Shown one piece after another: positions 1 through 56,469 of a stretch of 64,000 nt of DNA (positions are counted from its first letter, which is position 1; each line of letters starts with the position of its first letter). Under the pieces are notes generated by a model, which was not told where the DNA came from, made no database searches, and saw only the letters and a program-made list of their open reading frames with translations. Both the position numbers and the translations under genes were made by a program. Location: assembly GCF_058153355.1 (NCBI RefSeq), contig NZ_CM177019.1; one strand, 5' to 3'.

Positions 1-2
1 GT

Positions 3-389
3 TTTGATCTTCCGAGCGAAGATGAATGGGAATATTTATGTGGCGGTGGTTCCAGGACACTCTGGCGCTGGGGGAATAATTTCGACTATCAAATGAAAAT
101 CCCATTTATTACTTCAGAAGAACCAACAACCTGGGATATAGAATGGCCTAATCAGTTTGGGTTGCAGATTGCATTTGATCCCTATCTTCAGGAAATTATT
201 AATGATAAAGATATTCTTCTGAAAGGTGGCGATGGTGGGTGCAATCTCTGCGGAGGTGCTAATGTTGTATTAGGATTCTTGCCTGTGGCAACTTATTACA
301 AAGGATATAATAAACATACGGACGAATTAGAATATATGGATGACATTGGAGACAATTATACTTCTTATCGCAGAATAATTCGTTTATGA
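3..389 (+). CDS. 5'-truncated CDS at window edge; C-terminal part of a protein with a formylglycine-generating-enzyme-like (SUMF1/DUF323) signature
   Basis: Open frame runs from the window start to TGA at 387-389. Translation contains LPSEDEWEYLCGGG...WRWGN, resembling the LPTEAEWEYAARGG...PWGN core of FGE-like domains. Family call is from motif memory only. Confidence 0.35.
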   Translation, partial: FDLPSEDEWEYLCGGGSRTLWRWGNNFDYQMKIPFITSEEPTTWDIEWPNQFGLQIAFDPYLQEIINDKDILLKGGDGGCNLCGGANVVLGFLPVATYYKGYNKHTDELEYMDDIGDNYTSYRRIIRL

Positions 390-470
390 GTAAAAATTAT
401 ATTTCAGGACAAGAAGTTATGCTCGGGTCAAGCTAATGAATTGCTTAACGCAAGGAATAAAAACGTATTG

Positions 471-1952
471 ATGAACACTGGGAATTTCGAGTCGATACAA
501 ATCATGATCGACGCGCAAGAGTGGCGTAGCCTGCCGCTGCATCTGCGTCTGTATCACGCTTTTCGCCAATTGGTGATTTCCGGCGCATTGTCTGATGGCG
601 CAAAACTGCCTTCCGCTCGCGCACTGGCCCAGCAACTTGGTCTTTCCAGAGATACCATCGAAAATGCCTATTCCCAGCTCCACCGCGACGGTTTTATGGC
701 TCGCAGGCAGGGGGCCGGGAGTTTCGCCAGCCGCCAGGGGATACCGCATATTCAGGGCCAGCATGCGCAACCACCCTCGCCCGGACAAGTACCGGCTTTA
801 AGCGCTCGCTGGCAGCCAATTGCCGATCGCGCAGTCTCTTTCGATGCCCGCCAGATGCAGACCTTTACGCTTGGCCTGCCGGAAACGCGAAACTTCCCGC
901 TAAACATTTGGCAGAACTTTTCCCGCCAGATCCAACGTGAGCAGGCACATACGCTGATGTTAAATAGCGATCCGCAGGGCGAGCCACAGCTGCGCCAGCA
1001 AATTGCGCATTACCTTAATTTTGAACGCGGCGCGAAGGTAGATGCCGGGCAGATTGTGATTGTCAGCGGCGCACGGCAGGCGTTCTGGCTGTGCGGGCAA
1101 CTGCTGGCAGAGGCCGGACAGTCGGTGGCGATGGAAAATCCGGGCTATCCCGGCGCGCGTCAGGCGTTTTCTGCCGCACAGCTTAATCTTCTTCCCGTTG
1201 AAGTGGATGACGCCGGGATCCGGGTGGATAAACTGCCGCCCGCGCCGCTGGTTTACGTCACGCCCTCGCACCAGTTTCCTTCCGGTCATTTGCTCACGCT
1301 GGCGCGGCGTCATGCCCTGATTGCCTGGGCGCAGGCGCACAATGCGTGGATTATCGAAGACGACTACGACAGCGAATTTCACTACACCAGCGCGCCCGTC
1401 GCCTGTCTGCAAGGGTTAGACTGCGAGCAACGCACCCTGTATGTCGGCACTTTCAGCAAAACGCTCTATCCCGGCCTGCGCATCGGTTATCTGGTGGTGC
1501 CGACGTCGCTGGCTGCGCACTTTGCCGCCGCGCGTAATTTGCTTGATGGCGCAACGCCTGCGTTATCCCAACTAACGCTGGCGCGATTTATCGAGTCCGG
1601 TCATTTTGCCGCCCATATTCGCAACATGCGTAGTATGTATGCGGTGCGACAGGGGTGCCTGGCAGAGGCTATTCATCAGCACTTAAGTGAATGGGTCACG
1701 CCAGTGGTGACATCCGGTGGATTGCAAATGCCCTGCTGGCTGCATGGAGGTATTGATGAGCAACAGACGCTGAATGCCGCGCGCCGCGCCGGGTTAAACA
1801 TCGCCGGAATGCGCCAGTTCTGGCTGACGCACCCCGCGCACGCGGGCTGGCTGCTGGGATTCGCCGCCTTTACCCCCTACGAGATTGAACAGGGCGTCAA
1901 GCGTCTGCGGGCTGCATTATGCACTGAAAACGTGCGCCCAGCCGGGTCATAA
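471..1952 (+). CDS. MocR/GntR-family transcriptional regulator (N-terminal wHTH fused to a PLP aminotransferase-like domain)
   Basis: ORF-track 441..1952 begins at TTG. ATG at 471 sits about 13 nt after AGGAA. N-terminal HTH-like segment (LYHAFRQLVISGAL...LPSARALAQQLGLSRDTIENAY) followed by about 400 aa with aminotransferase-like features (SFSKTLYPGLRIGY). Visibly GC-rich. Confidence 0.75.
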   Translation: MNTGNFESIQIMIDAQEWRSLPLHLRLYHAFRQLVISGALSDGAKLPSARALAQQLGLSRDTIENAYSQLHRDGFMARRQGAGSFASRQGIPHIQGQHAQPPSPGQVPALSARWQPIADRAVSFDARQMQTFTLGLPETRNFPLNIWQNFSRQIQREQAHTLMLNSDPQGEPQLRQQIAHYLNFERGAKVDAGQIVIVSGARQAFWLCGQLLAEAGQSVAMENPGYPGARQAFSAAQLNLLPVEVDDAGIRVDKLPPAPLVYVTPSHQFPSGHLLTLARRHALIAWAQAHNAWIIEDDYDSEFHYTSAPVACLQGLDCEQRTLYVGTFSKTLYPGLRIGYLVVPTSLAAHFAAARNLLDGATPALSQLTLARFIESGHFAAHIRNMRSMYAVRQGCLAEAIHQHLSEWVTPVVTSGGLQMPCWLHGGIDEQQTLNAARRAGLNIAGMRQFWLTHPAHAGWLLGFAAFTPYEIEQGVKRLRAALCTENVRPAGS

Positions 1953-1956
1953 TCTC

Positions 1957-3003
1957 CTACGGGATGGTGTTGCAGGCAGCGGCAACCTGTTCCAGCGTCT
2001 GGCCTGCGCCAATAAATTCCACCTTATCGCCCGCTGTCGGCGTGACGGAGCTGGCATCGACCATAAAGCTGTCCATACAAACCCGCCCCAATACCGGTAA
2101 CCGCACGCCGCGCCAGCATACGCCCGCCGGAGGACGCATATTTCGCGGAACGCCATCCGCGTAACCCGCGGATATCGTAGCGATACGCAGCGGACGCGTG
2201 GCGGTAATCGTGCTGCCGTAGCCAACTGGCGTTCCCGCCGGGACATCCTGCACGCGCAGAATAGTTAGCGTCAGCGTAAAAGCCGGTTTTAGCGGCCTGG
2301 AAAACCACGGCTGGGCGACGCCAAACAGCGCAATCCCCGGACGGCAGAGATCTTCCCGCCAACCTGGTTGCAAAAACATTCCGCAGGAGTTCGCCAGCGA
2401 AAATCGGCTGCTGGGGAAAACCGTTTTTGCCTGCTGGAATAGCGCGTGTTGCGCCATATTTAACGCATGATCCGGCCTGTCGGCGTTCGCCAGATGGCTG
2501 ATGATATAGTCCGGCGCAGGCCAGTTACGCTCACGAAAAATCGCCGCCAGACGCATCAGTTGTTGCGGCATCATGCCCAGCCGCGACATACCAGAATCGA
2601 GCTGAATCATCACCGCGCTCCGTTGCTGGCGCGTTTCCAGTAACGTAAGCCACGCCATCACCTGGTCTACGGAATTGAGCAATGGCGTGATCTGCTGCGC
2701 GTAACAATACGCCATCGCCTCCGGCATAACCCCATTAAGCACTACCACCATCGCATCAGTGGGCAGGATTTTACGCAACGCCACGCCTTCAGAAAGCTGT
2801 GCGACAAAAAAGATCCGGCAGTTCGCCGCATACAGGGCGGGCGCAATCGCCTCCGCCCCCAGACCATAGGCATTGGCTTTCAACACCGCGCCACATTGCG
2901 CAGGGGCAGCATGGCGGGCCAGCATACGATAATTGTCGACGATGGCGGCGCGATTAACGCACATAACACCGCACGCCGCCTGGATTTCAGTAGAAGTCAT
3001 CAT
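1957..3003 (-). CDS. alanine racemase-family PLP enzyme (Alr paralog)
   Basis: 348-aa ORF with the AVLKANAYGLG PLP-lysine motif and overall colinearity with E. coli Alr. Start ATG overlaps the stop of the upstream SHMT-like gene (TAATG). GC-rich. Confidence 0.75.
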   Translation of the reverse strand: MMTSTEIQAACGVMCVNRAAIVDNYRMLARHAAPAQCGAVLKANAYGLGAEAIAPALYAANCRIFFVAQLSEGVALRKILPTDAMVVVLNGVMPEAMAYCYAQQITPLLNSVDQVMAWLTLLETRQQRSAVMIQLDSGMSRLGMMPQQLMRLAAIFRERNWPAPDYIISHLANADRPDHALNMAQHALFQQAKTVFPSSRFSLANSCGMFLQPGWREDLCRPGIALFGVAQPWFSRPLKPAFTLTLTILRVQDVPAGTPVGYGSTITATRPLRIATISAGYADGVPRNMRPPAGVCWRGVRLPVLGRVCMDSFMVDASSVTPTAGDKVEFIGAGQTLEQVAAACNTIP

Positions 3004-4238
3004 TAATAAGGCAACGGGTAGCGGTTGGTTAGTTGTATTACTTTTTGCTCAATATCGGCGCAAATGTCTGCAATATCTGATGAATTAATGGCGAAAATAA
3101 TTTCACTTATCCAGTCGGCAATCAGCGCAAAGTCATCCGCCTTCATCCCACGCGTGGTGCAGGCCGCGCTGCCAATACGAACGCCGGAGGTAATCAACGG
3201 CGGCTGCGGATCGCCCGGCAGGGTGTTTTTATTGACCGTGATCCCCGCCAGTTCGAGAAAGTACTCCACCTGTGCGCCGGTTAACCCCTGCGGGCGCAGG
3301 TCGATAATCCCCAGATGGCAGTCGGTGCCGTCCGTTAACAGCGTCAGGCCGCGCAGCGCCAGTTGCTGGCACATCGCCTGCGCATTGTCGATAACCTGCC
3401 CGGCATAACGTTTAAATTCCGGTTGTAATGCCTCGCCAAGCGCCACCGCTTTCGCTGCGATAACGTGCATCAACGGCCCGCCCTGCAAACCGGGAAAAAT
3501 GGCACTGTCGATTTTTTTCGCAAGCCTGGCGTCGTTGGTGAGGATCATGCCGCCGCGCGGCCCGCGCAATGTTTTATGCGTGGTGGTGGTGACCACATCA
3601 GCATACGCCAGCGGCGAAGGGAAACAGCCGCCCGCCACCAGCCCGGCAAAGTGCGCCATATCCACCAGCAAAATGGCGTCAACGGCATCGGCAATGCGGC
3701 GAAAACGGGCAAAATCATAGTGACGTGGATAAGCCGATCCTCCGGCAATAATCAACCGCGGGCGCTCACGCAGCGCGATCATCTCGACCTGATCCATATC
3801 AATCAAACCACTGTGCGCATCGACGCCATAGTGAAAAGCGTTAAACCATTTGCCGGATTGATTGACCGGCGAACCGTGCGTGAGATGCCCGCCGCATTGC
3901 AGGCTCATGCCAAGAATTTTGTCGCCGGGTTTCAGCAACGCCAGATGGACCGCCTGATTCGCCTGGCTGCCGGAGTGAGGCTGCACATTGACGTAACGCG
4001 CGCCAAAGAGCTGCTGCGCGCGGGTTATCGCCAGCATCTCAACCTCATCAATAAACTTACAGCCGCCGTAATAGCGATGCTGGTAATAACCTTCGGCGTA
4101 TTTATTGGTTAACACCGACCCCTGCGCCGCGAGAACGGCGGGGCTTACGAAATTCTCCGAGGCAATCAGTTCCAGCGACTGCTGCTGGCGCTGTTGCTCC
4201 TGGTTAATCAATGCAAAAAGTGGATCGTTATTTATCAT
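3003..4238 (-). CDS. serine hydroxymethyltransferase paralog (GlyA-like)
   Basis: Strong colinear similarity to GlyA ([57 protein letters not shown]). Start placed at MINNDPLF (ATG 4238), preceded by a GGGGGAAG RBS-like run; the ORF-track start at 4304 is an upstream extension. Confidence 0.85.
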
Positions 4239-4513
4239 GCGCTTCCCCCGCAAATTCATCATGCGATGATTTTCGCAGGGAAAACCTCGTCCGCACCCTG
4301 CCACTTTTTTGGGCAGGTGCAGACCACCTGTATGTCGTATTACTTAAAAGAAGAGAACATCGCTGACAATACCGGTATTAACTCCGAAATGAAGAGGGAA
4401 GAAGGCTCCGGCCATCTCCATGTGCGATTCTGGCTAGTAAAACATCATATTCCAGCTGCTCTTATCCGCCTACGTTATTGCATATACGGATAAGGCAGCC
4501 TCAATACGTACTT

Positions 4514-6067
4514 TTACTTGATATCTTTCACGCGCATACCGTTGATCTGTTCATCCGTGATGGTGTTACCCGCTTTAAAGTAATCAACCACCGCGTGATA
4601 AACGTAATAACCGCCCGTCGTATTGCGCGCTTTACCCTCGGTAAACGCGGTAAAACCATCTCCACCATCAGCAAGGAAACTCTGAGTGGCAATGTGGTAA
4701 ACCGTCGCATCTTCAATCGGTTTGCCATTCAAAGTCAGTGAGATAACCCGCTGACCAACCGGCTTGCTGCTGTCGTACTTCATTTCCAGGCCTTTCGATA
4801 CCTGTAAAACGCCATTACTTAAACTTGCGCCGTGTTCCATCAAACTGCGTAATTGTTTACCCGTGAGTTCCATCGTCACCAGTTCGTTGGGGAACGGGAA
4901 GGTACTGATGACGCCACCCATCGTAATTGCACCCGCCGGGATCTCATTGCGGATACCGCCAGAGTTGGTTAACGCCAACTGGGTATTTTTACCCGCCGCT
5001 GCCAGTAAAGCATCTGCCGCCAGGTTCCCGAGAGAAGCCGATTCACCATAGGCACGTTTTAGTTCAACCGGCGATTGCGCCACCGTTTGCTGCACGACTT
5101 CATCCAGCTTTTTATTCCAACTATCAATCACCTGTTTTGTTTGCGGATCGGGCTTCCACTCGTCGGCGTAAAGGGTTTTAAGCTCGAAGTTTTTCACCGT
5201 AAAAGTGTGCGGCTTCTCTTTGTAGTCCAGTACCAGTTTACCCACATCAATCCCACCGCTGTCAGTGGAGAGGATGAGCGTATTGCCGACTTTAATCGGT
5301 TCCGGCGTACCCACATGTGCATGCCCGGTGATCAAAATATCCAGCCCTTTCACCTGACTTGCCGTCTGAATATCTTTATCCAGTGCGCGGCGCACATCTG
5401 TGCCCCCCATACTGGACTGGCGGGCCGGAACACCTTCGTGAATCAGCGCAACGGTCAAATCAACCTTGCCTTTGAGTTCATCGATATAACGTTGTAGCCA
5501 TTTAATTTCATCACGCGCCTCAATACCCACTCGCGTTGCCGCAGATACCGTATCATTAAAGGCAAATACACCGTGCAAACCAATCACGCCAATTTTCACG
5601 CCGTCTTTTTCAATGATGGTATAGGGCTTATCCCAGAATGATTTACTGCTGTTCTGATAAAAAACATTACCCTGCACAATCGGGAATTTTGCCTGACTCA
5701 ACTGTAATAACGTATTGTCCCAGCCGTGATCAAATTCATGATTACCTATAGTGGCCGCATCGAACGGCATGGTATTCATAATATCGATAATCGCCTTGCC
5801 TTTAGTCAGGCTGCTGATATACGGCCCGGTAAAATAGTCACCCGCATCAAAAAACCAGGTCGCTTTGTTTTTAGCTTTTTCTTGTTTAACAAGCGTAGTG
5901 ATATTTGCCCAGCCGCCAATATCTCGTTTACCGTCAGCAATCCACGGCACTTTATAAGGCTCTACATGTGCATGGAGGTCGTTGGTATAAATGATGGTGA
6001 CATCTTTGGCGCAAGCCCAAAACGGCAGTGTTAATGCGATACCCGCAGCAAGCATTTTAATTTTCAT
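4514..6067 (-). CDS. secreted bifunctional metallophosphatase/5'-nucleotidase-family protein (UshA/CpdB-like), paralog 1
   Basis: N-terminal signal peptide ([20 protein letters not shown]). Metallophosphoesterase motifs NDLHAH, DAGDYF, GNHEFD, GHAH, followed by a 5'-nucleotidase C-terminal-like half. ATG 6067 follows GGAAGGGA; the ORF-track start 6073 is TTG. Confidence 0.85.
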
Positions 6068-6199
6068 AAACAATCCCTTCCAGTGAGATAAAGGATTGCT
6101 ACATTACGTTCTGAAAGGCTTTTTTATGTGAGAATACTCACATCCAGAGGCGATAACTGTAGGACAAAATCAACGACCTTATGAAATCGTTGGTGATAT

Positions 6200-7327
6200 A
6201 TGTCAAATCTGTTTGCGATTAATGTCTGTAAAACGTTCGGTTGTCGAAATTTGGGATTGGCCTCATCGGAAGATTACAGTTGGCCAGACTATAAACTGGG
6301 TTTTCCGGCACTGCACTGCCAGGCATGCGGAAGTTACCCCCCTTTGTTTGATGAACAACAATTTCGTGACTGGTTGTCAGTTCACATGACTGCGTGTGCC
6401 ATAGAAACAGGGCATTTTTGTCCATCATGCTATTGTAAAGAAAAGATTTTTTATGGCCACAACCCGCAGGGAACACAACGCGTTCAATGCCGTTCATGCA
6501 AAAAAGTCTGGACTCCGAAACAGCAGCCAGCAAGAGAAATTACGTATCCCCAGTCCATTGAAACCGTTCAACTGTTCATGCCCTTTCAAGGAGCCAGCGC
6601 AGTACAAAAGCTCTATGTTTTAGTCAGTCTTGACGCCACTCGTGGCAACATCCTTCATCTCTCCACGAATTATACGCAACATCAGACAGGAGACAGTCTG
6701 CGGTACAGTTACAGAGGCAATACAGAACCAACTGAGCACCATAGCGATATTGTGCAGAGGGTAGATATGCGTGAAGCGCAATTCTTGCGCCGGAGCCAGT
6801 TCGATGAAATTCAGTATGGCAGTGCTGTGCTCAAGCGCAACGGCAAGGGAGCCATACTACGCCCGGTTATCACGGCACACGGGCATTTCAGAATACTGAA
6901 AATCCGCTTTCCACATGTCAAAACGCATATCATTTCACACGAATGTTTTCTGAGAGGCGCAATTATTACAGCCTGGGCAGATCAGTTCCGCCAACAACAA
7001 GGCGAACTTTGGTTCGTAGAAGAAGAAATCAGCGACCGTAACGCTGATATTCCCTGGCATTTTCAGGGAACGACATACCATGGTTGGTGGCAAAATCAGT
7101 GGCAACGCTGGGGGCAGGGGAATAACAGCAAGATGGTCTGCCTGCTCACAGGAGTCTCCTTAGAAAGGGGCGCAAATGTTTCTCTGGCAACCAGTCGTTG
7201 CTTTATCACATGGCTGACAGACCAACACGACTTTACCCAAAGCGCGTTATTATCCGCAGGTCGCGTAACGAAAATGCTGACCTCACTGGCGTTAAAATAC
7301 AATGAATCGCTCAATCCATCTTGTTAG
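6200..7327 (+). CDS. hypothetical Cys-rich protein (zinc-ribbon-like N-terminus, W/Q-rich C-terminus)
   Basis: 375-aa ORF with CxxC pairs (CQACGS...CPSCYC...CRSCKK). No family I can assign with confidence. Flanked by AT-rich DNA and sits between nucleotidase paralogs. Confidence 0.5.
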   Translation: MSNLFAINVCKTFGCRNLGLASSEDYSWPDYKLGFPALHCQACGSYPPLFDEQQFRDWLSVHMTACAIETGHFCPSCYCKEKIFYGHNPQGTQRVQCRSCKKVWTPKQQPAREITYPQSIETVQLFMPFQGASAVQKLYVLVSLDATRGNILHLSTNYTQHQTGDSLRYSYRGNTEPTEHHSDIVQRVDMREAQFLRRSQFDEIQYGSAVLKRNGKGAILRPVITAHGHFRILKIRFPHVKTHIISHECFLRGAIITAWADQFRQQQGELWFVEEEISDRNADIPWHFQGTTYHGWWQNQWQRWGQGNNSKMVCLLTGVSLERGANVSLATSRCFITWLTDQHDFTQSALLSAGRVTKMLTSLALKYNESLNPSC

Positions 7328-7556
7328 TCAATACACTCGACAAACGACCATAAATTAATGGGATCACTATTTCTCATTTAATTAAATATATGAATGTATG
7401 ACTGAAAAATATAATCACAGTCAATGTTTAATTAATAACATTATTTGTTACTAAGATCACATAATACTTTCCTGACCTATGCTTACATAAAAATAAGACA
7501 CGGAGTTCCTTTTATTTAAATAATTCAACCAATGTAACAACCCCTATCAAGGAGGG

Positions 7557-9110
7557 ATGATGAGAACTGTATTTACGACTTTATCAGTCATATTCAGCGT
7601 GATGTTTTCTCACAGTATACTAGCTCAGGACGTTACTATTTATTATACGAATGATATTCACGCACATGTCAATCCGGCAAAAATTCCCGCTGTTGATAAG
7701 AACAGACTTGTAGGTGGTATGGCTAATATTGCAGGCATCGTTAATGAAGCGAAGAAAAAAAACAAAGATGTCTTTTTCTTTGATGCAGGCGACTATTTTA
7801 CCGGTCCGTATATCAGTACCCTGACCAAAGGTGAAGCTATTATTGATATCATGAACACCATGCCCTTTGATGCGGTATCCGTTGGTAATCACGAGTTCGA
7901 TCACGGCGTGCCCAATATGGTATCTCAGTTATCAAAAGCAAAATTCCCCATTCTGCTGGGAAATATTTACTACACCGATACAAATAAACCAGTTTGGGAT
8001 CATCCGTGGACCATTATCGAAAAAGATGGTTTAAAGATTGGTGTGATTGGATTGCATGGTGCATTCGCTTTCTATGATACAGTCGCGGCAAAAGCACGTG
8101 AAGGCGTAGAAGCCAGAGACGAAATTAAATATTTAAATAAAGCACTTGCAGAATTAAAAGGTAAAGTCGACATTACCGTTTTGCTAATTCACGAAGGTGT
8201 TCCGGCGCGTCAATCAAGCTTTGGTAGTAAAGATGTGGAGCGGCTACTACAGGCAGATATTGAGACAGCTAAAAAAGTGAATGGTGTTGATGTCTTAATT
8301 ACCGGTCACGCACATGTCGGAACACCGCAACCAATAAAAGTTAATAACACATTAATTGTATCTACCGATGCATACGGCACCGACATCGGAAAACTTGTGC
8401 TTGATTACAATCCGAAAACGAAGAAAATTGATAGTTATAATGGTGAGTTAATCACCATCTTCGCAGATCAATTTAAACCTGACACCATCGTTCAAAATAC
8501 TATCGATAAATGGAGTGCAAAGCTTAACAAAATAACACAGGAAGTTGTCGGCCATTCTCCCGTAGTTTTAACACGTGAGTATGGCAGTTCTTCTTCTACC
8601 GGTAACCTTATTCTTGATGCAATGATGGAAAAAACACCAGATGCCATTGCCGGATTTCAAAATAGCGGTGGGATGCGAGCTGATTTTCCTAAAGGTGATA
8701 TCACGCTGGGAGATGTTATTAGCACATTCCCCTTTAATAATGACCTCATCGAGATGGATTTGACGGGCCGCGATCTCAAATCGTTGATGACGCATGCAAC
8801 CAATCTAACTAACGGTGTGTTACAGGTTTCAAAAAGCGTTGCGGTTGTCTATGACAGCAAAAAACCACTGAACCAACGGTTAATCTCTTTCACCATTAAC
8901 GGCAAACCCGTGGAAGATAATCAAACATATCGTATTGTCACGCACTCCTTTTGTGCCAGTGGTGGTGACGGTTTTGAAGCATTTTTGAATGGAAAAAATG
9001 TGAAGACGATACCGGGAACAACCTCGGCGGAATCTATCATCGATTATTTCAAAAATCATAAACCTGTCACCCCAGACTTAACTAAACGAGTAATGGACGT
9101 CGCCAAATAA
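7557..9110 (+). CDS. secreted bifunctional metallophosphatase/5'-nucleotidase-family protein, paralog 2
   Basis: AAGGAGGG immediately upstream (ATG 7557 or 7560). Signal peptide, then NDIHAH, DAGDYF, GNHEFD, GHAH motifs; colinear with paralogs 1 and 3. Confidence 0.85.
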   Translation: MMRTVFTTLSVIFSVMFSHSILAQDVTIYYTNDIHAHVNPAKIPAVDKNRLVGGMANIAGIVNEAKKKNKDVFFFDAGDYFTGPYISTLTKGEAIIDIMNTMPFDAVSVGNHEFDHGVPNMVSQLSKAKFPILLGNIYYTDTNKPVWDHPWTIIEKDGLKIGVIGLHGAFAFYDTVAAKAREGVEARDEIKYLNKALAELKGKVDITVLLIHEGVPARQSSFGSKDVERLLQADIETAKKVNGVDVLITGHAHVGTPQPIKVNNTLIVSTDAYGTDIGKLVLDYNPKTKKIDSYNGELITIFADQFKPDTIVQNTIDKWSAKLNKITQEVVGHSPVVLTREYGSSSSTGNLILDAMMEKTPDAIAGFQNSGGMRADFPKGDITLGDVISTFPFNNDLIEMDLTGRDLKSLMTHATNLTNGVLQVSKSVAVVYDSKKPLNQRLISFTINGKPVEDNQTYRIVTHSFCASGGDGFEAFLNGKNVKTIPGTTSAESIIDYFKNHKPVTPDLTKRVMDVAK

Positions 9111-9150
9111 AATATCATTTATCAGTCTATTTATTTAACAAGGAATGCGA

Positions 9151-10770
9151 ATGAAAACAGTGCAGCGTACTTTACTTGCCGCAACATTGCTGACTATTTT
9201 TTCGGTCTCAGCCATGGCGCAGGATGTCACGATTATTTATACCAATGATCTTCACGCTCATGTGGATTCTTATAAAGTGCCGTATATCGCAGACGGAAAA
9301 CGCGACATTGGCGGCTTTGCCAATATATCTACTTTAGTAAAACAAGAGAAAGCGAAAAATAAAGCCACCTTTTATTTTGATGCTGGAGACTATTTCACCG
9401 GCCCTTATATCAGCAGTCTGACAAAGGGCGAAGCAATAATTGACATTATGAATACCATGCCTTTTGACGCAGTATCAATCGGTAATCATGAGTTTGACCA
9501 TGGCTGGGATAATGCCCTGCGACAATTAAGCAAAGCGAATTTTCCTGTTTTATTGGGCAATGTTTATCATAAAGAGAGTGAGAAACCCTTCTGGAACAAG
9601 CCCTACACCATCCTGGAAAAAGATGGCATCAAGATTGGTATTATTGGGCTACACGGCGTATTTGCATTTAATGATACGGTCTCGGAGCTCTCTCTCCAGG
9701 GACTCGATAATGACAATAATAACCGCTTTGATAAATCTTCCGAGACCCTTAAGAATCAGGGGATTGAAGCACGTGATGAAGTGAAGTATTTGCAGCATTA
9801 TATCGACGAGTTACGTGATAAGGTTGACCTCACTGTGGCGCTGGTTCATGAAGGCGTTCCGGCGCGTCAGTCCAGCATTGGCATTACAGATGTTAGACGC
9901 GCTCTTGATAAAGATATTCAAACCGCTAGCAAGGTGAAAGGATTGGATATTCTGATTACCGGGCATGCCCACGTCGGAACGCCAGAACCAATCAAAGTCG
10001 GCAACACCTTAATCCTTTCAACTGATAGTGGCGGTATCGATATTGGTAAATTAGTCCTTGATGTCAACCCTACAGCTCGTACCCATAAAATGAAGAGCTT
10101 TGAGCTGAAAACAGTTTATGCCGATGAATGGATACCCGATCCAACGACACAAAAAGTTATCAATGGCTGGAATAAAAAACTGGCGGATATTGTACGCCAA
10201 CCAGTGGGTGAATCATCGATTGCATTAACTCGCGCCTATGGTGAGTCATCGCAACTAGGCAACCTGTTTACCGATGCAATGCTTGTCGCTGCTCCGACTG
10301 CACAGATTGCATTGATAAACTCCGGCAGCTTACGTGCGGATATAAATGCAGGCACGATTACCTTTGGCGACATTACCAGTACATTCCCCTTCAAGAATGA
10401 ACTTACTGAAATGGATCTCAGCGGTAAGGATCTGCGTAACCTACTGGAACACGGGGCATCGCTTACCAATGGCATCCTGCAAATGTCAAAAGGCGCAGAA
10501 ATGCGCTATACCCCGCAGAAACCAGTAGGTCAGCGCATAGTATCTTTTAAAATTAATGGTGAAGAGATCGTTGATACGAATATTTACCATGTTGCAACAA
10601 CGACTTTCCTTGCACTGGGGGGCGATGGTTTTCTGGCATTCAAAGAAGGGAAAAATGTTCAGGTCCGCGCCGGAAAAAACATGTCCGATGTCGTGATCGA
10701 TTATTTGAAGAAAGGCCACAAGATTACGCCTGCACAGGTAAATGAAATGCGGGTGGACGTTAGCAAATAA
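9151..10770 (+). CDS. secreted bifunctional metallophosphatase/5'-nucleotidase-family protein, paralog 3
   Basis: ATG 9151 lies 7 nt after AAGGA (ORF-track start 9145). Very close to paralog 1 over most of its length but with an extra insert of about 25 aa (ELSLQGLDNDNNNRFDKSSETLKNQG). Followed by a hairpin terminator. Confidence 0.85.
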   Translation: MKTVQRTLLAATLLTIFSVSAMAQDVTIIYTNDLHAHVDSYKVPYIADGKRDIGGFANISTLVKQEKAKNKATFYFDAGDYFTGPYISSLTKGEAIIDIMNTMPFDAVSIGNHEFDHGWDNALRQLSKANFPVLLGNVYHKESEKPFWNKPYTILEKDGIKIGIIGLHGVFAFNDTVSELSLQGLDNDNNNRFDKSSETLKNQGIEARDEVKYLQHYIDELRDKVDLTVALVHEGVPARQSSIGITDVRRALDKDIQTASKVKGLDILITGHAHVGTPEPIKVGNTLILSTDSGGIDIGKLVLDVNPTARTHKMKSFELKTVYADEWIPDPTTQKVINGWNKKLADIVRQPVGESSIALTRAYGESSQLGNLFTDAMLVAAPTAQIALINSGSLRADINAGTITFGDITSTFPFKNELTEMDLSGKDLRNLLEHGASLTNGILQMSKGAEMRYTPQKPVGQRIVSFKINGEEIVDTNIYHVATTTFLALGGDGFLAFKEGKNVQVRAGKNMSDVVIDYLKKGHKITPAQVNEMRVDVSK

Positions 10771-10782
10771 TAAAAAAATTAT

Positions 10783-10816
10783 AATGCCATTCATTCACTG
10801 AATGGCATTATTTTCT
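10783..10816 (+). terminator. rho-independent terminator after nucleotidase paralog 3
   Basis: Palindrome AATGCCATTCA...TGAATGGCATT followed by a T-rich run. Confidence 0.6.
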
Positions 10817-10847
10817 CTAAATCAACAATAGATAATGAGATATATTT

Positions 10848-11708
10848 ATGTGTATAAAAAAGCACGGGATAGCTTTATCGATTCTATTAATACCTTGCAT
10901 TGGAAACGCTCAGGAAATTAAAAGTGAGGAAGGCTGGTTACATCAAAGCTTGAATGTCATTGGTCGCACAGACTCTCGCTTTGGCCCAAGGCTGACTAAC
11001 GACCTCTACCCTGAATATACTGTAGCAGGAAGAAAAGACTGGTTTGATTTTTATGGTTATGTTGATCTACCAAAATTCTTTGGCGTCGGCAGTCACTATG
11101 ATGTTGGGATCTGGGATGAGGGCTCACCACTATTTACGGAAATAGAACCTCGGTTTTCCATTGACAAATTGACCGGATTAAATCTTGCGTTCGGCCCTTT
11201 TAAAGAATGGTTCATTGCAAACAACTATGTCTATGATATGGGTGACAACCAGTCATCCCGGCAAAGTACATGGTATATGGGGCTTGGTACAGATATCGAC
11301 ACGGGTCTACCAATTAAGCTTTCTGCCAATATATACGCCAAGTATCAGTGGCAAAACTATGGTGCCGCTAATGAAAATGAATGGGACGGATATCGATTCA
11401 AAATAAAATATAGCATTCCTCTTACCCATTTATTCGGAGGGCGATTGGTATACAATAGTTTTACTAACTTTGATTTTGGATCCGATCTTGCGGACAAATC
11501 ACACAATAATAAACGAACCAGTAATGCTATTGCTTCAAGCCATATCCTTTCCCTGCTATATGAACACTGGAAATTTGCATTTACACTACGTTATTTTCAC
11601 AACGGTGGACAATGGAATGCTGGGGAGAAAGTTAACTTCGGAGATGGTCCATTTGAATTAAAAAACACAGGATGGGGAACCTATACTACTATTGGTTATC
11701 AATTTTAA
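10848..11708 (+). CDS. Tsx-family nucleoside-specific outer-membrane channel (Tsx paralog)
   Basis: 286-aa ORF with signal peptide and long colinear identity to E. coli Tsx ([70 protein letters not shown], terminal F). Confidence 0.85.
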
Positions 11709-11885
11709 ATCAGGTGATGTTTTAGATATTTTTACTTAATGCCATTTTGTAATTGTCATAAATAACTTCACCATTCACACTGTGAATTCATCGCTCAACA
11801 CAAAAGCCCCCTTATTACCGGGGCACTGACCAAAGGCAAAATGACAATCAATCACCACCTCCGCAGGAGGTGGTTTAGAGGTGAC

Positions 11886-11913
11886 AACAAAAGCTGGCAA
11901 CTGCCAGCTTTTG
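11886..11913. terminator. palindromic hairpin downstream of metL (likely bidirectional terminator)
   Basis: ACAAAAGCTGGCAACTGCCAGCTTTTGT palindrome just past the metL stop. A second palindrome (ACCACCTCCGCAGGAGGTGGT) lies at 11854-11874. Confidence 0.55.
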
Positions 11914-11924
11914 TTCAATAATCA

Positions 11925-14357
11925 CTACAACAACTGCGCCAGACGGTTAATATCCGACTGAATCGCCCCGGCGGTGACGTCGCGCCCTGCGCCTGGCCCA
12001 CGGATCACCAGCGGGTTGTCGCGATACCAGCGGCTTTCGATGGCAAAGACGTTATCGCACGGTAGTAGTGATGCCAGCGGATGGTCTTCTCGCACCGCTT
12101 CCACGCCTACTCGCGCTTTGCCGTTAGCATCGAAACGCGCCACGTAGCGCAACACCAGCCCCATTTCACGGGCCGCTTCCAACCGTTGTACCATCTGCTC
12201 ATTAAGTTCATCGCCATTTTCAAAGAAATGGTCGATGCTGCCACCTTCGCAATGGGTTGGCACCAGTGATTCAACACGCACCTGGTCCGGTTCAATGTTG
12301 TAACCCGCTTCACGCGCCAGAATCACCAGCTTGCGCATCACATCTTTGCCGGAGAGGTCATCACGCGGGTCAGGTTCAGTTAAGCCCTGCTGCCACGCCT
12401 GATCCACCAGCTCAGTAAACGGCACGCTACCGTCGAATTGCAGGAACAGCCAGGAGAGCGTGCCGGAGAAGATCCCGCTGATCGACAAAATAGTGTCGCC
12501 GCTGTCGATCAGATCGCGCACGGTATGGTTGATCGGCAAACCTGCGCCGACGGTGGCGTTGTATAGCCAGTGACGCCCGGTTTTTTCGAACGCGTCGTGG
12601 ATCTGTCGATATTTATTGCTGTCGCTGGCTCCCGCCAGTTTGTTGGCACTGATGACGTGGAAACCGTGGCTGGCGAAATCGAGATACTGATCAGCAAGCT
12701 GCTGGCTGGCAGTAACGTCCAGCACCACTAAATCATCATACGGATGGGCACGCATCCACAGGAACAGCGACTCTTCATCCTGTTCGACGGCTTCATCATT
12801 AAAGAAGGCTAGCGCACGGCTGGCGTCCAGCCCGTCATAGCTCAACAGGCTGCGACGGCTGTCCACCACGCCTGCCAGCACAAATTCAAAGCCGGTGCGC
12901 GCCGAGAGCGTGCTCTGCTCACGGGCGAACAGTTCCAGCCAGCGGGAACCGATATTGCCCTTACCGAACAATACCAGGCCGATGCGTTTTTCTGCGCGGA
13001 AGACGGACTGATGCAGCCCCTGAATCAGGCTTTCGGTCGGCCCGGTGCGCAGTACTGCCACCAGGCTGATGCCGTCATCGGACTGCCAGGTAAACTCGAC
13101 CGGCTGGCCTTTCAGTTGCTGCCAGAAGCGGTGGCAATGCAGCGGGTTACGGGTGACGCCCGCCCCAACCATCGCCACCAGCGCCAGCCCCTGACGCAGG
13201 CGCAGTTCGCCGGGTAATCCTGCTTCGTCGAGGATTTTCAGCGCACTGTCGGCCACTTCCGAGGTGTAGCAAAATTGCAGCAACTGGCGATCGTTATGCA
13301 CGCCAACTGCCAGTGGGCGCACCTGAGCACGTTTCAGGATTTGGTCGATCTCTTTATGCGCCAGTTTAAAATCCTGACTGGCGGGCACCTGAAACTCAAT
13401 CAAACAGACATCATCGTGGCTGGTGACAATACGCGCGCCAGTACCTGAGGCCAGCACGCGTTCAATACGCGTAGATCCTTGATCCGGTGTATAGCTACAG
13501 CGCAGCTGCAGGTCGATTTCGCTGCCAGAAACTGGCTGTAAAGTACGCGCGTGCAACACTGGCGCGGCAAGACGCGCCAGTTCACTGGCTTCATCAAGAC
13601 GCAGCAATGGCAGCAGACAGGCATCTTTCACTTTACGCGGGTCGGCACTATATACCCCGGCGACATCGCTCCAGATGGTTACGCGGGAAACCCCCGCCAG
13701 CGCACCGATTTGTGTCGCGGAATAGTCGGAACCGTTACGCCCCAGCAGCACCGTTTCACCGGCGTTGTTACGGCTGATAAACCCGGTCACCACCAGACGT
13801 TTGCCCGGATGTTGTACCAGTAGCTGTTGCAGCAACGGGTAAGAAAGCCCTTCATCAACCTGCGGCTGCGCGGCGCGTTCAGCGCGTAAAAACTCGCGGG
13901 CATCAAGCCAGGCCGCTGGCAGCCCTTGTTGATTAAGTACCGCAGACATCAGGCGCGCCGACCACACTTCACCGTGGCCCACCACTTCCGCATACACCGC
14001 ATCGTTAATACCGCTGTCGAGCAGCGCCGCCAGGCGTTCCAGATCGCTGACAAAAGCGCTAATGAGGCTATCGGCTTCTTCAGCGGGTAGCAGGCCGCTA
14101 ATCAGATCGCACTGATAGCGACGCAGCGTTTGTTGAACCTGATGCGCAGAGAGACGATCGGTCTGGCTTAGTTTCAACCAGTTAATCAACTGGTTAGTGG
14201 TGCTACCGGCGGCGGAAACCACCATCATATCGTCAGGCTGAGAGTACTCCGCCATAATGCCCGCGACACGCAAATAACACTTCACATCAGCCAGACTACT
14301 GCCACCAAATTTATGCAGTTGACGACCTTTCGCCCCTGCCTGCGCAATCACACTCAT
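11925..14357 (-). CDS. metL: bifunctional aspartokinase II / homoserine dehydrogenase II
   Basis: 810-aa ORF matching MetL in length and sequence. Two-nt gap to metB, as in the metBL operon. Confidence 0.95.
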   Translation of the reverse strand: MSVIAQAGAKGRQLHKFGGSSLADVKCYLRVAGIMAEYSQPDDMMVVSAAGSTTNQLINWLKLSQTDRLSAHQVQQTLRRYQCDLISGLLPAEEADSLISAFVSDLERLAALLDSGINDAVYAEVVGHGEVWSARLMSAVLNQQGLPAAWLDAREFLRAERAAQPQVDEGLSYPLLQQLLVQHPGKRLVVTGFISRNNAGETVLLGRNGSDYSATQIGALAGVSRVTIWSDVAGVYSADPRKVKDACLLPLLRLDEASELARLAAPVLHARTLQPVSGSEIDLQLRCSYTPDQGSTRIERVLASGTGARIVTSHDDVCLIEFQVPASQDFKLAHKEIDQILKRAQVRPLAVGVHNDRQLLQFCYTSEVADSALKILDEAGLPGELRLRQGLALVAMVGAGVTRNPLHCHRFWQQLKGQPVEFTWQSDDGISLVAVLRTGPTESLIQGLHQSVFRAEKRIGLVLFGKGNIGSRWLELFAREQSTLSARTGFEFVLAGVVDSRRSLLSYDGLDASRALAFFNDEAVEQDEESLFLWMRAHPYDDLVVLDVTASQQLADQYLDFASHGFHVISANKLAGASDSNKYRQIHDAFEKTGRHWLYNATVGAGLPINHTVRDLIDSGDTILSISGIFSGTLSWLFLQFDGSVPFTELVDQAWQQGLTEPDPRDDLSGKDVMRKLVILAREAGYNIEPDQVRVESLVPTHCEGGSIDHFFENGDELNEQMVQRLEAAREMGLVLRYVARFDANGKARVGVEAVREDHPLASLLPCDNVFAIESRWYRDNPLVIRGPGAGRDVTAGAIQSDINRLAQLL

Positions 14358-16782: not shown

Positions 16783-16802
16783 TACGACCAAAATTCAGGC
16801 AC

Positions 16803-51589: not shown

Positions 51590-51593
51590 TGAG

Positions 51594-51624
51594 TTGCGGT
51601 GCCGGAAAATATCCAGCACCGCGC
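51594..51624. terminator. putative bidirectional terminator hairpin between rhaM and the porin gene
   Basis: GCGGTGC...GCACCGC inverted repeat with a 13-nt loop between convergent genes. Confidence 0.4.
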
Positions 51625-51629
51625 CTTCA

Positions 51630-53024
51630 TCAGAAGAAGTATTTAAAGCGAACGCGTGCGCCGTAACGGTCATCAGTATCATCACCGTGTTTTTTATCAC
51701 CGTCGCTATCCAGAATGGAGTAATAAGTACCAAGGTAAATATTAAAGTTCTCCATATCCATCACATTAGCGAACTGATAAGACGCATGAATGGTGTGAAT
51801 GGTGTACGTCCCTTCATCATCAATCCAGCAGTCGTTATCACAAACTACACCGCTGAATTCATCAATCTTATTGTGCGCGTAGATATAACCCAGCTCGAAA
51901 CGTTTCCACAGCGCGTTAATCCCGGCAGTGAAATCTTTTTCATTATTAGCATCTAAATAGGCGGTATTAAGATTAACCACGACGCCATTTTCCGGATCCG
52001 TTTTCAGGCCATTCCAGGTCATGCTCATACCATAGCCGGTACGATCGGACTGATCGACAAAATTACCCTTGCTATCGGTATAACCATAAGCATTATTTAC
52101 TACGTTCGCTTCCATCGCTGCGGAAACGGTGAATTCTTCCGTCGGCGACCAGGCAATTACCGGACGCAGATAAGCAACATTTTTCTGCTGCTTCATATCG
52201 CGTCCATGATAATTACCGTCATTATATAAAGATGTTCCGTCTTCAAGTAACGTGTTTAATTCAAAATACCAGTTATCGAGTTGTTTGCTGACGAGGAAAT
52301 TACCGCCAGCGTTAGAGCGCCCGCGGCCCTCTTTCATCATATAGATATAACCGCTGCCATCGTCATAAAGATCGTTCGCAGTATTACCGGAATGTTCAAC
52401 AAAGGTATCCTGATTCAGCGGGAACATATCGTAGGCTTCAAAACGGCCTACTTTGACCTTCCAGTCGTTTTCTTTGCCAAAGAAGAATACCGCATCATCG
52501 ATATTTACTGAACCGTGCATATCCCCCAGCGGTTGTGCGGAGAACCCGGCGAAATAACCATTATCCAGTTTTCGCATACCATCAAAACCTAACAGAATAC
52601 GACCATTGAGATTCCACTGTTCATTAGTGGGATCGCTATTCACATCAGCGTTGGTCATTGCCAGCAGGCCATGATTACTTTCCGCATCCATATTAAATTC
52701 TACGTCGCCGTAGATTTTTAAATCGCCATAACCTGAAAGCAAAAGATTAGGTGAGGTGGCATTTTTCTTTGCAGATTCCGCCGTTGTCTGTCCATTTACC
52801 GGCGTATTGCCCTGGGCAGCCTTAATTTCGCGGATCTCAGCGGCTTGTTGTGTCTGCAGCTGTTTTACCTGCCCCTCTGCTTTTGCTGCCCGCATTTCTG
52901 CCGCTTCCAGGCGTTCTTCCAGCAATGCCATGCGTTGTTCCAGCGTTAAATGCTGTGTTTTTGCCATTCCGGTACTACATGCCAATAATAAACCGATGGC
53001 TAAAGATAATGTCGATTTTTTCAT
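51630..53024 (-). CDS. putative outer-membrane carbohydrate-selective porin (OprB/ScrY-like: N-terminal coiled coil plus beta-barrel)
   Basis: 464-aa ORF with signal peptide MKKSTLSLAIGLLLACSTGMA, about 50 aa of coiled coil (LEQRMALLEERLEAAEMRAAKAEGQVKQLQ), an aromatic/Gly-rich alternating region and C-terminal ...RFKYFF typical of OM beta-barrels. Family assignment is inferred. Confidence 0.6.
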   Translation of the reverse strand: MKKSTLSLAIGLLLACSTGMAKTQHLTLEQRMALLEERLEAAEMRAAKAEGQVKQLQTQQAAEIREIKAAQGNTPVNGQTTAESAKKNATSPNLLLSGYGDLKIYGDVEFNMDAESNHGLLAMTNADVNSDPTNEQWNLNGRILLGFDGMRKLDNGYFAGFSAQPLGDMHGSVNIDDAVFFFGKENDWKVKVGRFEAYDMFPLNQDTFVEHSGNTANDLYDDGSGYIYMMKEGRGRSNAGGNFLVSKQLDNWYFELNTLLEDGTSLYNDGNYHGRDMKQQKNVAYLRPVIAWSPTEEFTVSAAMEANVVNNAYGYTDSKGNFVDQSDRTGYGMSMTWNGLKTDPENGVVVNLNTAYLDANNEKDFTAGINALWKRFELGYIYAHNKIDEFSGVVCDNDCWIDDEGTYTIHTIHASYQFANVMDMENFNIYLGTYYSILDSDGDKKHGDDTDDRYGARVRFKYFF

Positions 53025-53500
53025 TATTTACGTTCCCTGAAATAAAAGATACCCTACGCTTTCCAAAAGGAATACGTATATAGAGAAATATAAGGTGTGC
53101 ACTTTCGAATTTTTAATCCAACTTCAGCAGGCCGATGGATAGTATCCCGCTGCATAATATGAGTAAATCCGCTGATTTCCTGGAACGTGAGGAATATAAC
53201 AATAGTGCCGTTTTTAACTAAATATCGTAAAAAATATTAGATATAATTCACGCTGACTCATAAGCCACAAATATAAATAACCTTGCTGCAAAATATGTGC
53301 GGCAGTTAAACATTCACAACATCATTAAATAATGATTTTTTATTCACTGCATTTATTTTTCCCATCAATATGTGCCTTACACCGCAAAATTTATCCTTCA
53401 CTCTGCCTTATATTGTCACGACTTCACGACATATCCGCGCTCATCACAAAACCGCCCCGCCGTTACAATTAACTATAATATTTTTTCATGGAGTCCAATA

Positions 53501-53947
53501 ATGGCAGCACTTACTGCAAGCTGTATTGACCTGAATATTCAGGGCAATGGCACTTATTCCGTTCTGAAGCAGTTAGCGACAATGGCGTTACAAAACGGTT
53601 TTATCACCGACTCACATCAATTCCTGCAAACCCTGCTGGTGCGCGAAAAAATGCACTCCACCGGTTTTGGTTCTGGTGTCGCCGTGCCGCACGGTAAAAG
53701 CGCCTGTGTTAAACAACCGTTCGTATTATTCGCTCGCAAAGCGCAGGCCATTGACTGGAAAGCCAGCGATGGCGAAGACGTCAATTGCTGGATCTGCCTC
53801 GGCGTGCCGCAAAGTGGCGAAGAGGATCAGGTCAAAATCATCGGCACACTGTGTCGCAAAATTATCCACCAGGATTTTATCAACCAACTGCGACAAGGCG
53901 ACGCCGTCCAGGTGCTTGCTTTGTTAAATCAAACCCTCAGCTCATAA
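53501..53947 (+). CDS. frvA: PTS fructose-like EIIA component
   Basis: Native start MAALTASCIDLNIQGNGTYSVLKQ, 148 aa; ORF-track start 53372 is extended upstream. Confidence 0.92.
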   Translation: MAALTASCIDLNIQGNGTYSVLKQLATMALQNGFITDSHQFLQTLLVREKMHSTGFGSGVAVPHGKSACVKQPFVLFARKAQAIDWKASDGEDVNCWICLGVPQSGEEDQVKIIGTLCRKIIHQDFINQLRQGDAVQVLALLNQTLSS

Positions 53948-53957
53948 GGAAGTGGCG

Positions 53958-55409: not shown

Positions 55410-56469
55410 GTTACTGCAACAGTTGTGCGAAGCCAGCGCCGTCAGCGGCGATGAACAGGAAGTTCGCGACATTCTGATGAACACGCTGGAACCCTGCGTG
55501 AATGAGATCACCTTCGATGGTCTGGGCAGCTTTGTTGCCCGTAAGGGGAATAAAGGGCCGAAAGTTGCCGTTGTCGGGCATATGGATGAAGTCGGCTTTA
55601 TGGTCACCCACATCGACGAGAGCGGTTTTCTGCGTTTTACCACCATTGGCGGCTGGTGGAATCAGTCGATGCTCAACCACCGGGTAACCATACGCACACA
55701 CAAGGGAGTGAAAATCCCTGGTGTAATTGGCTCCGTCGCGCCACATGCGTTAACCGAAAAGCAAAAGCAACAACCGCTGTCATTTGATGAGATGTTCATT
55801 GATATTGGCGCGAACAGTCGCGAAGAAGCGGAAAAACGTGGCGTGGAAATTGGCGATTTTATTAGCCCGGAAGCCAATTTTGCCTGCTGGGGCGAAGATA
55901 AAGTGGTCGGCAAGGCGTTGGATAACCGCATCGGCTGCGCAATGATGGCTGAACTATTGCAGACGGTGAATAACCCCGAAATTACGCTTTATGGCGTTGG
56001 CAGTGTGGAAGAAGAAGTTGGGCTACGCGGGGCACAAACCTCGGCTGAACACATTAAACCGGATGTGGTGATCGTGCTGGATACCGCCGTCGCGGGCGAT
56101 GTTCCGGGCATTGATAACATTAAATACCCGCTGAAACTGAGCAACGGGCCGGGGCTGATGTTGTTTGACAAGCGCTACTTCCCCAACCAGAAACTGGTAG
56201 CAGCGTTAAAAAACTGTGCCGTACATAACGATTTACCACTGCAATTTTGCACCATGAAAACCGGAGCGACGGATGGCGGGCGCTACAACGTGATGGGCGG
56301 CGGGCGTCCGGTTGTCGCGCTGTGCCTGCCAACGCGTTATCTGCACGCTAACAGCGGCATGATTTCAAAAGCCGATTACGATGCTCTGCTCACGTTGATA
56401 AGGGATTTTCTGACCACCTTAACCGCGGAGAAAGTCAACGCGTTTAGCCAGTTCCGTCAGGTGGATTAA
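55399..56469 (+). CDS. frvX: M42-family aminopeptidase/endoglucanase-like protein FrvX
   Basis: MNIELLQQLCEASAVSGDEQEVRDIL, 356 aa; overlaps the frvB 3' end. Confidence 0.92.
   Translation: MNIELLQQLCEASAVSGDEQEVRDILMNTLEPCVNEITFDGLGSFVARKGNKGPKVAVVGHMDEVGFMVTHIDESGFLRFTTIGGWWNQSMLNHRVTIRTHKGVKIPGVIGSVAPHALTEKQKQQPLSFDEMFIDIGANSREEAEKRGVEIGDFISPEANFACWGEDKVVGKALDNRIGCAMMAELLQTVNNPEITLYGVGSVEEEVGLRGAQTSAEHIKPDVVIVLDTAVAGDVPGIDNIKYPLKLSNGPGLMLFDKRYFPNQKLVAALKNCAVHNDLPLQFCTMKTGATDGGRYNVMGGGRPVVALCLPTRYLHANSGMISKADYDALLTLIRDFLTTLTAEKVNAFSQFRQVD

Follow-up and report, generated by a model that had tools for sequence, protein, structure and literature searches.

A divergent FGE-fold gene inserted between metF and metL in rare Escherichia coli genomes, with relatives in clostridial immunity-gene arrays

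The window analyzed here, a stretch of 64,000 nucleotides from contig NZ_CM177019.1 (assembly GCF_058153355.1), begins inside a gene whose reading frame is open at the 5' edge. Translation of positions 3..386 on the plus strand gives FDLPSEDEWEYLCGGGSRTLWRWGNNF...YRRIIRL, with a TGA stop at 387..389; the translation offered in the initial annotation of this DNA was exact, its length being 128 residues plus the stop codon. That annotation also placed most of the gene beyond the window, which proved correct: 196 of the 324 codons (60%) were found upstream in E. coli 2013C-4282, and the visible part is the C-terminal 40%. The upstream sequence was sought by megablast of window positions 1..3000 against 5,426 complete E. 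coli genomes. This stretch is present in three of them and extends upstream in two, and the FGE-like gene itself is carried by 2 of the 5,426. The complete gene occupies 11415..12389 of locus L001 (E. coli 2013C-4282, NZ_CP027579.1), and its product, WP_000281214.1, is annotated there as "hypothetical protein". Because window positions 1..389 are 100% identical in DNA to L001 12001..12389, WP_000281214.1 was used as the full-length form. No signal peptide or hydrophobic segment was found in the full-length protein, which is predicted to be a soluble, cytoplasmic protein of 324 aa.

The gene forms the metF-proximal end of an insertion of about 12.7 kb between metF and metL, two genes that are otherwise adjacent in essentially all E. 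coli; conserved sequence ends at about L001 11221. The order within the insertion is the FGE-like gene, a MocR-type regulator, alanine racemase, serine hydroxymethyltransferase (SHMT), and then a nucleotidase part and Tsx. The island takes up window positions 1..11924, with metF outside the window:

1..389, plus strand: 3' part of the divergent, almost certainly FGE-fold gene (last two bases of codon 196, codons 197-324, stop)
471..1952: MocR-type regulator, separated from the FGE-like gene by an 81-bp gap
1897..3003, minus strand: alanine racemase
3003..4304, minus strand: SHMT paralogue
4514..6073, minus strand: 'bifunctional metallophosphatase/5'-nucleotidase', first paralogue
6200..7327, plus strand: 375-aa 'cytoplasmic protein'
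7557..9110, plus strand: 'bifunctional metallophosphatase/5'-nucleotidase', second paralogue
9145..10770, plus strand: 'bifunctional metallophosphatase/5'-nucleotidase', third paralogue
10848..11708, plus strand: Tsx-like nucleoside channel
11925..14357: metL

The three nucleotidase paralogues share 66-76% mutual nucleotide identity and, together with the 'cytoplasmic protein' and the Tsx-like channel, look like a nucleoside-scavenging module; the nucleotidase/Tsx part of the island has a GC content of 43.3%. In the window the SHMT paralogue is intact, with 433 codons. Its copy in E. coli 2013C-4282 has an internal stop at codon 288, and the gene is annotated as a pseudogene both there and in E. 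coli GF4-3. The alanine racemase of the window stops at codon 349, 20 codons earlier than in E. coli 2013C-4282 (368 aa), where the 3' end of the racemase gene and the convergent MocR-type gene share about 56 bp.

Five gene combinations occupy the metF-metL spot across Escherichia and Superficieibacter genomes. E. albertii has the FGE-like gene alone between metF and metL, Escherichia sp. MOD1-EC7003 has it with the nucleotidase segment and without MocR/Alr, and Superficieibacter electus has a frameshifted copy beside metF with other genes alongside. E. coli GF4-3 carries the PLP genes, with a PTS EIIC gene and malI replacing the FGE-like gene. The intergenic spot is a mosaic insertion hotspot. 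The FGE-like gene also differs in composition from its neighbors: its GC content is 36.5%, that of the MocR/Alr/SHMT trio 57.9% and that of the remaining window 51.5%. A functional tie with the adjacent PLP enzymes, as first suggested, is at odds with modules that assort independently and differ so much in GC, and we consider it likely that the gene is functionally unlinked to the MocR, alanine racemase and SHMT genes.

Searches with single sequences gave only sub-threshold matches to one motif. The window fragment matched PF03781 with E = 9e-4 (19.4 bits, under the cut-off of 23.3), and the full-length protein, for which PF03781 is the sole Pfam match, reached 20.7 bits against the gathering score of 23.3 over residues 184-226 only. 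A scan of NCBIfam returned a weak GldK/PorK match to the same ~35 residues, which were also the ones matched by ToxD (E 0.004) and FGEs (E ~0.2) in a phmmer search of the PDB; a PHROGs search added only this motif (~45 residues), in a family bearing the label 'kinase'. Every one of the weak matches in Pfam, NCBIfam and the PDB is an FGE-fold protein or family. As the single-sequence searches went no further, family profiles and structure were then used. PF03781 is matched by 30 of 32 aligned family members (E<=0.01; best 9.6e-7), and the family profile finds ToxD (3e-6) and human FGE (8e-6) in the PDB by hmmsearch. Alignment of the 32-member family alignment (A1) to human SUMF1 by hhalign, with a SUMF1 query 100% identical to PDB 1y1e, gave a probability of 96.4% and an E-value of 1.3e-9, the confident part covering only the central ~70 residues. 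The FGE/SUMF1-like signature pointed out in the initial annotation is thus significant at the level of the family, and the PF03781 search it had proposed for the full ORF gave a divided result, with the protein itself below the cut-off and its relatives matching.

Structural comparison gave scores for the FGE-like protein of 13.1 against PorK, 12.7 against PvdO, 12.5 against SUMF2, 12.4 against CalU17, 12.3 against TvpA and 11.9 against ToxD, followed by EgtB (10.3), OvsA (10.2), CarF (10.1), OvoA (8.9), SenA (8.8) and Mtd (8.2). The protein classifies by this comparison as FGE-fold, with 165-189 of its 324 residues superposing; its extras over the fold core are an N-terminal segment and an insert of ~60 residues, and the segment preceding the FGE core is only ~57 residues long. 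Taken together, the product of the window gene is almost certainly an FGE-fold protein. It most likely represents a very divergent, distinct branch of the FGE/SUMF1 (C-type-lectin-like) fold, in which the scaffold motifs are kept and FGE/EgtB chemistry is not.

The best structural scores among non-FGE members of the fold were to PorK/GldK (the T9SS ring lipoprotein), PvdO, SUMF2/pFGE, CalU17 and ToxD. These proteins are periplasmic, located in the ER, lipoproteins, or encoded in biosynthetic clusters. Unlike them, the window protein has no signal peptide, and T9SS, pyoverdine, toxoflavin and calicheamicin genes are not nearby. The fold is also shared by TvpA, Mtd and TaqVP, so the protein could in principle be the ligand-binding variable protein of a diversity-generating retroelement. 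We regard this as exceedingly improbable, since there are no direct repeats of at least 30 nt in L001 9000-16000 and no reverse transcriptase at the locus, and since the C-terminal region, the site of the variable regions in such elements, is highly conserved and 100% identical between strains.

Relatives of the protein numbered 360 matches in a word-indexed search and 930 cluster representatives in an exhaustive search (E<=1e-3), the majority being 315-335 aa long and aligning end to end. Alignment A1 shows FGE scaffold motifs over the full length, in the order EFVFVPGDTVTLGW, PVRTVTIxPMLVER, LPTEDEWEYLCGGGSRTLWRWGD, PNQFGLxIAYDPYxYEVV, LKGGDGGCNICGG and YRRIIRL. As in human SUMF1 and bacterial FGEs, the overall fold is accompanied by the motifs FVxVPG, EWEY, WG[DN], PNxxGL, KGG and a C-terminal R. 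The motifs that fall within the window are:

9..77, plus strand: core FGE-fold motif LPSEDEWEYLCGGGSRTLWRWGN, residues 199-221, corresponding to human FGE 225-247 by hhalign
147..194, plus strand: PNQFGLQIAFDPYLQE, residues 245-260, counterpart of the FGE 'PNxxGLxxxxGNxWEW' strand
222..257, plus strand: glycine/cysteine loop KGGDGGCNLCGG particular to the family, residues 270-281, where FGE has its catalytic loop KGGSYMC336HRSYC341
369..371, plus strand: codon of R319 in the C-terminal YRRIIRL, counterpart of the FGE 'GFRC' arginine (global hhalign)

Residue conservation was tallied by aligning 259 retrieved relatives to the family HMM and counting the 201 that cover the C-terminal half. The core motif, which is the only stretch matched by PF03781, by NCBIfam GldK and by FGE and ToxD in the PDB, has E204/W205/E206/Y207 conserved at 93-98% and Cys at position 209 in 89% of the 201 members. 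The confident hhalign block ends at PNQFGL, equivalent to human PNGYGL. Conservation in this census is ~100% for N246, G249 and E260, and likewise for G212, D273, G274 and G275; R319 is found in 201 of 201 members. Cys occupies position 279 in 95% (His in 4%) and position 276 in 63%, the remaining members having Ser, Gly, Arg, Ala, Tyr or Val at 276 (n=201 for both). About a third of members, mostly clostridial, have extra cysteines at 213 (34%) and 291 (31%), in motifs such as LCGGGCRTLF and LPCSPY. These may be a clade-specific Cys pair; position 291 adjoins the residue opposite FGE Cys341 in the global hhalign.

FGE has two catalytic Cu(I)-binding cysteines, C336 and C341 in the human enzyme, spaced as CxxxxC. 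The loop of the window protein reads C276-N-L-C279, a CxxC rather than C336-x4-C341. Aligned by eye, KGGDGGC276 corresponds to KGGSYMC336; the forced global hhalign, which is of low confidence here, places C279 opposite C336 and Ala292 opposite C341. As neither register has both positions conserved, this family does not preserve the two-cysteine copper site of FGE. The initial annotation had advised looking for this pair, and also for an EgtB-like iron-binding His motif. Only 125 of the 201 members have Cys at both 276 and 279, and no column exceeds 51% His among the 201. A Pfam scan of the full-length protein detected neither a DinB domain nor any cofactor-binding domain. Without a DinB domain and a His triad, an EgtB/OvoA-type site is absent.

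No sulfatase lies among the neighbors in E. coli, E. albertii or ~90 other loci, and no ergothioneine or ovothiol (egt, ovo) gene was found in any examined locus. A genuine formylglycine-generating enzyme maturing a Cys-type sulfatase would share the fold and the core motif, and could have its two cysteines in C276 and C279, in the loop corresponding to the FGE catalytic loop; given that, unlike FGE, the family has neither a conserved Cu-binding Cys pair nor a sulfatase partner, we judge this identity extremely unlikely. An EgtB/OvoA-type sulfoxide synthase, or some other role in one pathway with the adjacent MocR-type regulator, alanine racemase and SHMT, is very improbable as well. There is no DinB domain, no conserved His and no nearby egt or ovo gene; the gene and the PLP module assort separately, as seen in E. 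albertii, Escherichia sp. MOD1, Superficieibacter and E. coli GF4-3; and a 21-point GC difference separates the gene from the PLP trio. The gene product is thus very probably not a true FGE or EgtB. What stands of the initial interpretation is the fold and superfamily; neither the PLP linkage nor the catalytic signatures that had been hoped for were found. Some relatives are named "SUMF1/EgtB/PvdO family nonheme iron enzyme" in NCBI records. Names such as FGE, sulfatase-modifying factor or SUMF1/EgtB/PvdO enzyme should be avoided for the gene, because its product lacks the catalytic hallmarks; annotation should likewise keep it apart from the adjacent PLP genes.

A scan of 100,044 species genomes for the family yielded 267 loci, and the best 80 of these were characterized. 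They come mainly from gut Clostridia (Oscillospiraceae and others), the remainder being from Paenibacillus/Cohnella/Brevibacillus, Listeria, Fusobacterium, Bacteroidota and a spirochaete, with only three from Enterobacteriaceae. Spot checks of Paenibacillus, Chitinophaga, Breznakiella and a metagenomic relative found no conserved neighbors. Brevibacillus and a Clostridium have long same-strand arrays of small unannotated ORFs that include DUF4253, a colicin/pyocin immunity gene, and WGR, HEAT and ankyrin proteins. ORFs were then called at the loci, flanking proteins were clustered, and Pfam scans were run in bulk. The 49 clostridial loci are tightly spaced arrays in which 356 of 435 genes are co-oriented with the family gene. 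Recurrent neighbors include a protein of ~1,400 aa with Imm68, DUF7832 and DUF4253 (32 loci), Imm-NTF2 (11 loci), NADAR (11 loci), DUF6892 with DUF7738 (10 loci) and Tpt1/KptA (8 loci). The commonest Pfam families among the neighbors are SUFU, SMI1/KNR4-SUKH, Imm33, Imm68, Imm51, Imm-NTF2 and NADAR, along with DUF4241, DUF4253, DUF4261, DUF5713 and DUF1963; no toxin domain is among the top neighbor families of the clostridial arrays. The family gene is present in a single copy per locus, a second one within +-6 kb being found at 0 of 78 loci. Giant clostridial polyimmunity proteins of 1,000-2,000 aa, which combine Imm68, DUF7832 and DUF4253, lie one to three genes downstream of the family gene at loci including L043, L044, L048, L064, L066, L067, L072, L085, L088, L089 and L093. 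Several recurrent array clusters have no Pfam match, with proteins of ~97 aa (12 loci), ~248 aa (13), ~375 aa (10) and ~82 aa (10).

Long relatives (500-2400 aa) have the family domain fused to DUF4241, DUF4261, DUF1963, DUF5713 or TPR. The fusion-partner DUFs, which are putative immunity domains only, recur as separate genes in the arrays, and DUF4253 is itself fused to Imm68. As a control, the +-3 neighbors of 24 non-clostridial, non-enterobacterial loci, 125 proteins in all, were spread over 119 Pfam families and no immunity family recurred, so the clostridial array signal is not an artefact of the method. Immunity arrays surround the family gene only in the clostridial branch, whose members are <=39% identical to the E. 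coli protein, and at one Paenibacillus locus.

Zhang et al. 2012 (PMC3482391) described heterogeneous polyimmunity loci, as well as polyimmunity proteins of Firmicutes that combine as many as ten immunity domains. As in the loci described there, the family gene at the 49 clostridial loci lies in close, co-oriented arrays with Imm68, Imm33, Imm51, Imm-NTF2, SUKH and Imm-SuFu, and as in the proteins of that account the family domain is fused to other array components and TPR. The Escherichia copy, in contrast, lies outside any such array. The available portion of that text makes no mention of FGE, C-type lectin, DUF4253, DUF4241 or YwqG. A C-type-lectin/FGE-fold domain fused to YwqG/DUF1963 (TYPP) has been read as a peptide- or protein-binding module (Burroughs & Aravind 2014, PMC4275035). 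The architecture of one of our fusion proteins, P0189 (family domain plus DUF1963), is that very fusion; the window protein, however, is stand-alone, and PMC4275035 neither defined the family nor described its polyimmunity context.

One precedent is Tsi3 of Acinetobacter baumannii, an FGE-fold protein without the FGE cysteines or His triad that serves as the immunity protein of the T6SS effector Tse3 and acts by protein-protein binding; its genes adjoin vgrG-tse3 in T6SS-bearing Gram-negatives and occur as tandem non-identical paralogues in 84% of occurrences (Lopez et al. 2021, bioRxiv 10.1101/2021.05.21.445229). The present family resembles Tsi3 in having the FGE fold without the catalytic cysteines, His triad or DinB, in its association with interbacterial-toxin immunity genes and, as proposed here, in acting by binding rather than catalysis. 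Unlike Tsi3, it has no vgrG/tse3 or T6SS context, is found mainly in Firmicutes, Fusobacteria and Bacteroidota, is single-copy rather than in tandem arrays, falls under the Pfam FGE threshold, and has the N-terminal segment and the ~60-residue insert.

Array context and fusions together suggest, tentatively, an immunity-type function for the protein. It would neutralize a toxin of polymorphic-toxin conflicts: a groove matching the FGE substrate-binding site, lined by the GGDGG-x3-C loop, may bind the incoming toxin, or the protein may instead reverse the action of that toxin. This supposes that the array context reflects immunity function and that the function extends to the solitary Escherichia copy, at 36-38% identity. 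The full account, in which a fold member without FGE catalysis neutralizes toxins and persists in Escherichia as a solitary, horizontally acquired orphan, is the best explanation we can offer, at about even chances. More speculatively, the gene could be the Escherichia outpost of an uncatalogued FGE-fold immunity family that stands apart from Tsi3 by description and serves mainly Gram-positive gut anaerobes, in heterogeneous polyimmunity loci and giant polyimmunity proteins directed at non-T6SS toxins; its invariant GGDGG-x3-C(H) loop, in the former FGE active site, might then neutralize toxins by catalysis or with a metal rather than by plain occlusion.

Several observations weigh against immunity. 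The 24 non-clostridial loci are flanked by unrelated housekeeping genes. No toxin/immunity neighbors lie beside the enterobacterial copies, no toxin or toxin-delivery gene was found in the 64-kb window and no T6SS gene at the metF-metL locus, and PADLOC defence models match neither the protein nor two fusion proteins. An RHS element ~20 kb away in E. coli 2013C-4282 was considered as a toxin partner and rejected, being absent from the genome of the window. Membership of an array is no proof of a binding mechanism, because polyimmunity arrays also hold enzymes (NADAR, Tpt1). To judge from the residues, D273, C279 (Cys/His), E260 and R319 are so strictly conserved across phyla that they resemble an active or metal site more than a surface for toxin binding, which would evolve fast.

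The protein could also be read as an enzyme that catalyzes a new reaction, different from that of FGE, by means of D273, C279 (Cys or His), E260 and R319 and perhaps a metal. Such an enzyme might reverse a toxin modification chemically, as NADAR or Tpt1 would, or have an unrelated cytoplasmic role; all these variants taken together we consider rather unlikely, though a serious competitor. A small polar/Cys set is near-100% conserved across phyla at 35-45% overall identity, the Cys-to-His swap at 279 is typical of metal or catalytic residues, and the loop occupies the position of the FGE catalytic loop. Many FGE-fold proteins are catalytic (PvdO, ToxD, CalU17, EgtB), the arrays do contain enzymes, and one copy per locus (0/78 with a second) is unlike diversifying immunity arrays. 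Set against this, no partner enzyme, transporter or regulator is conserved outside Clostridia, C276 is variable, the fusion partners are binding or immunity-type modules rather than metabolic enzymes, and no cofactor-binding domain was detected.

The nearest non-enterobacterial relatives of the Escherichia copy are in Firmicutes, at 52-61% identity, and this affiliation together with the 36.5% GC points to horizontal acquisition. E. coli, Escherichia sp. MOD1 and E. albertii all have the ORF intact, and the dN/dS values of the three Escherichia pairs are 0.069, 0.22 and 0.10, with dS up to 1.3-1.4; the gene is under purifying selection. There are 110 member sequences in the cluster of the identical protein and 117 in the E. 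albertii cluster. Its being a decaying, functionless remnant of a horizontally transferred gene is highly unlikely in view of the intact ORF in three Escherichia lineages, the dN/dS of 0.07-0.22 and these cluster sizes, even though the gene is rare (2/5,426 complete E. coli genomes) and AT-rich, is frameshifted in Superficieibacter electus and Listeria costaricensis, and has a promoter signal not above chance (5 sites versus 6.1 expected by chance, and no terminator). The frameshifts run from frame 1 to frame 3, at L032 6001..6974 in S. electus and at L016 6001..6959 in L. costaricensis. Both species are relatively close relatives, and the Superficieibacter copy has the same metF-adjacent position as in Escherichia.

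If the immunity reading is true, toxin neutralization has made use of the FGE fold at least twice, in Tsi3 of the T6SS and in the present family of Firmicute arrays, and the solitary copy that selection maintains in E. albertii and rare E. coli would be a case of cross-phylum orphan immunity. It would also provide a handle on DUF4241, DUF4253, DUF4261, DUF5713, DUF6892 and DUF7832, companions of the family that are abundant in the gut microbiome. As repurposing of the FGE fold is already documented, none of this would be a major surprise. The most useful by-product of the analysis is the link between an FGE-fold family, several abundant gut-microbiome DUFs and polyimmunity arrays, which has apparently been uncatalogued so far.

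Two further differences separate the window from E. coli 2013C-4282, which is otherwise 98-99% identical to it. At ~16783..16791, between yiiX and rpmE, E. coli 2013C-4282 has an 8-kb insert that is wholly missing from the genome of the window and contains an ISAs1 transposase, a group II intron, an RHS core protein and its dsORF. Conversely, window positions 51590..59368 (~7.8 kb) are missing from E. coli 2013C-4282, which has only fragments of the frv operon genes at that position; this segment is probably the intact frv region or another insertion.
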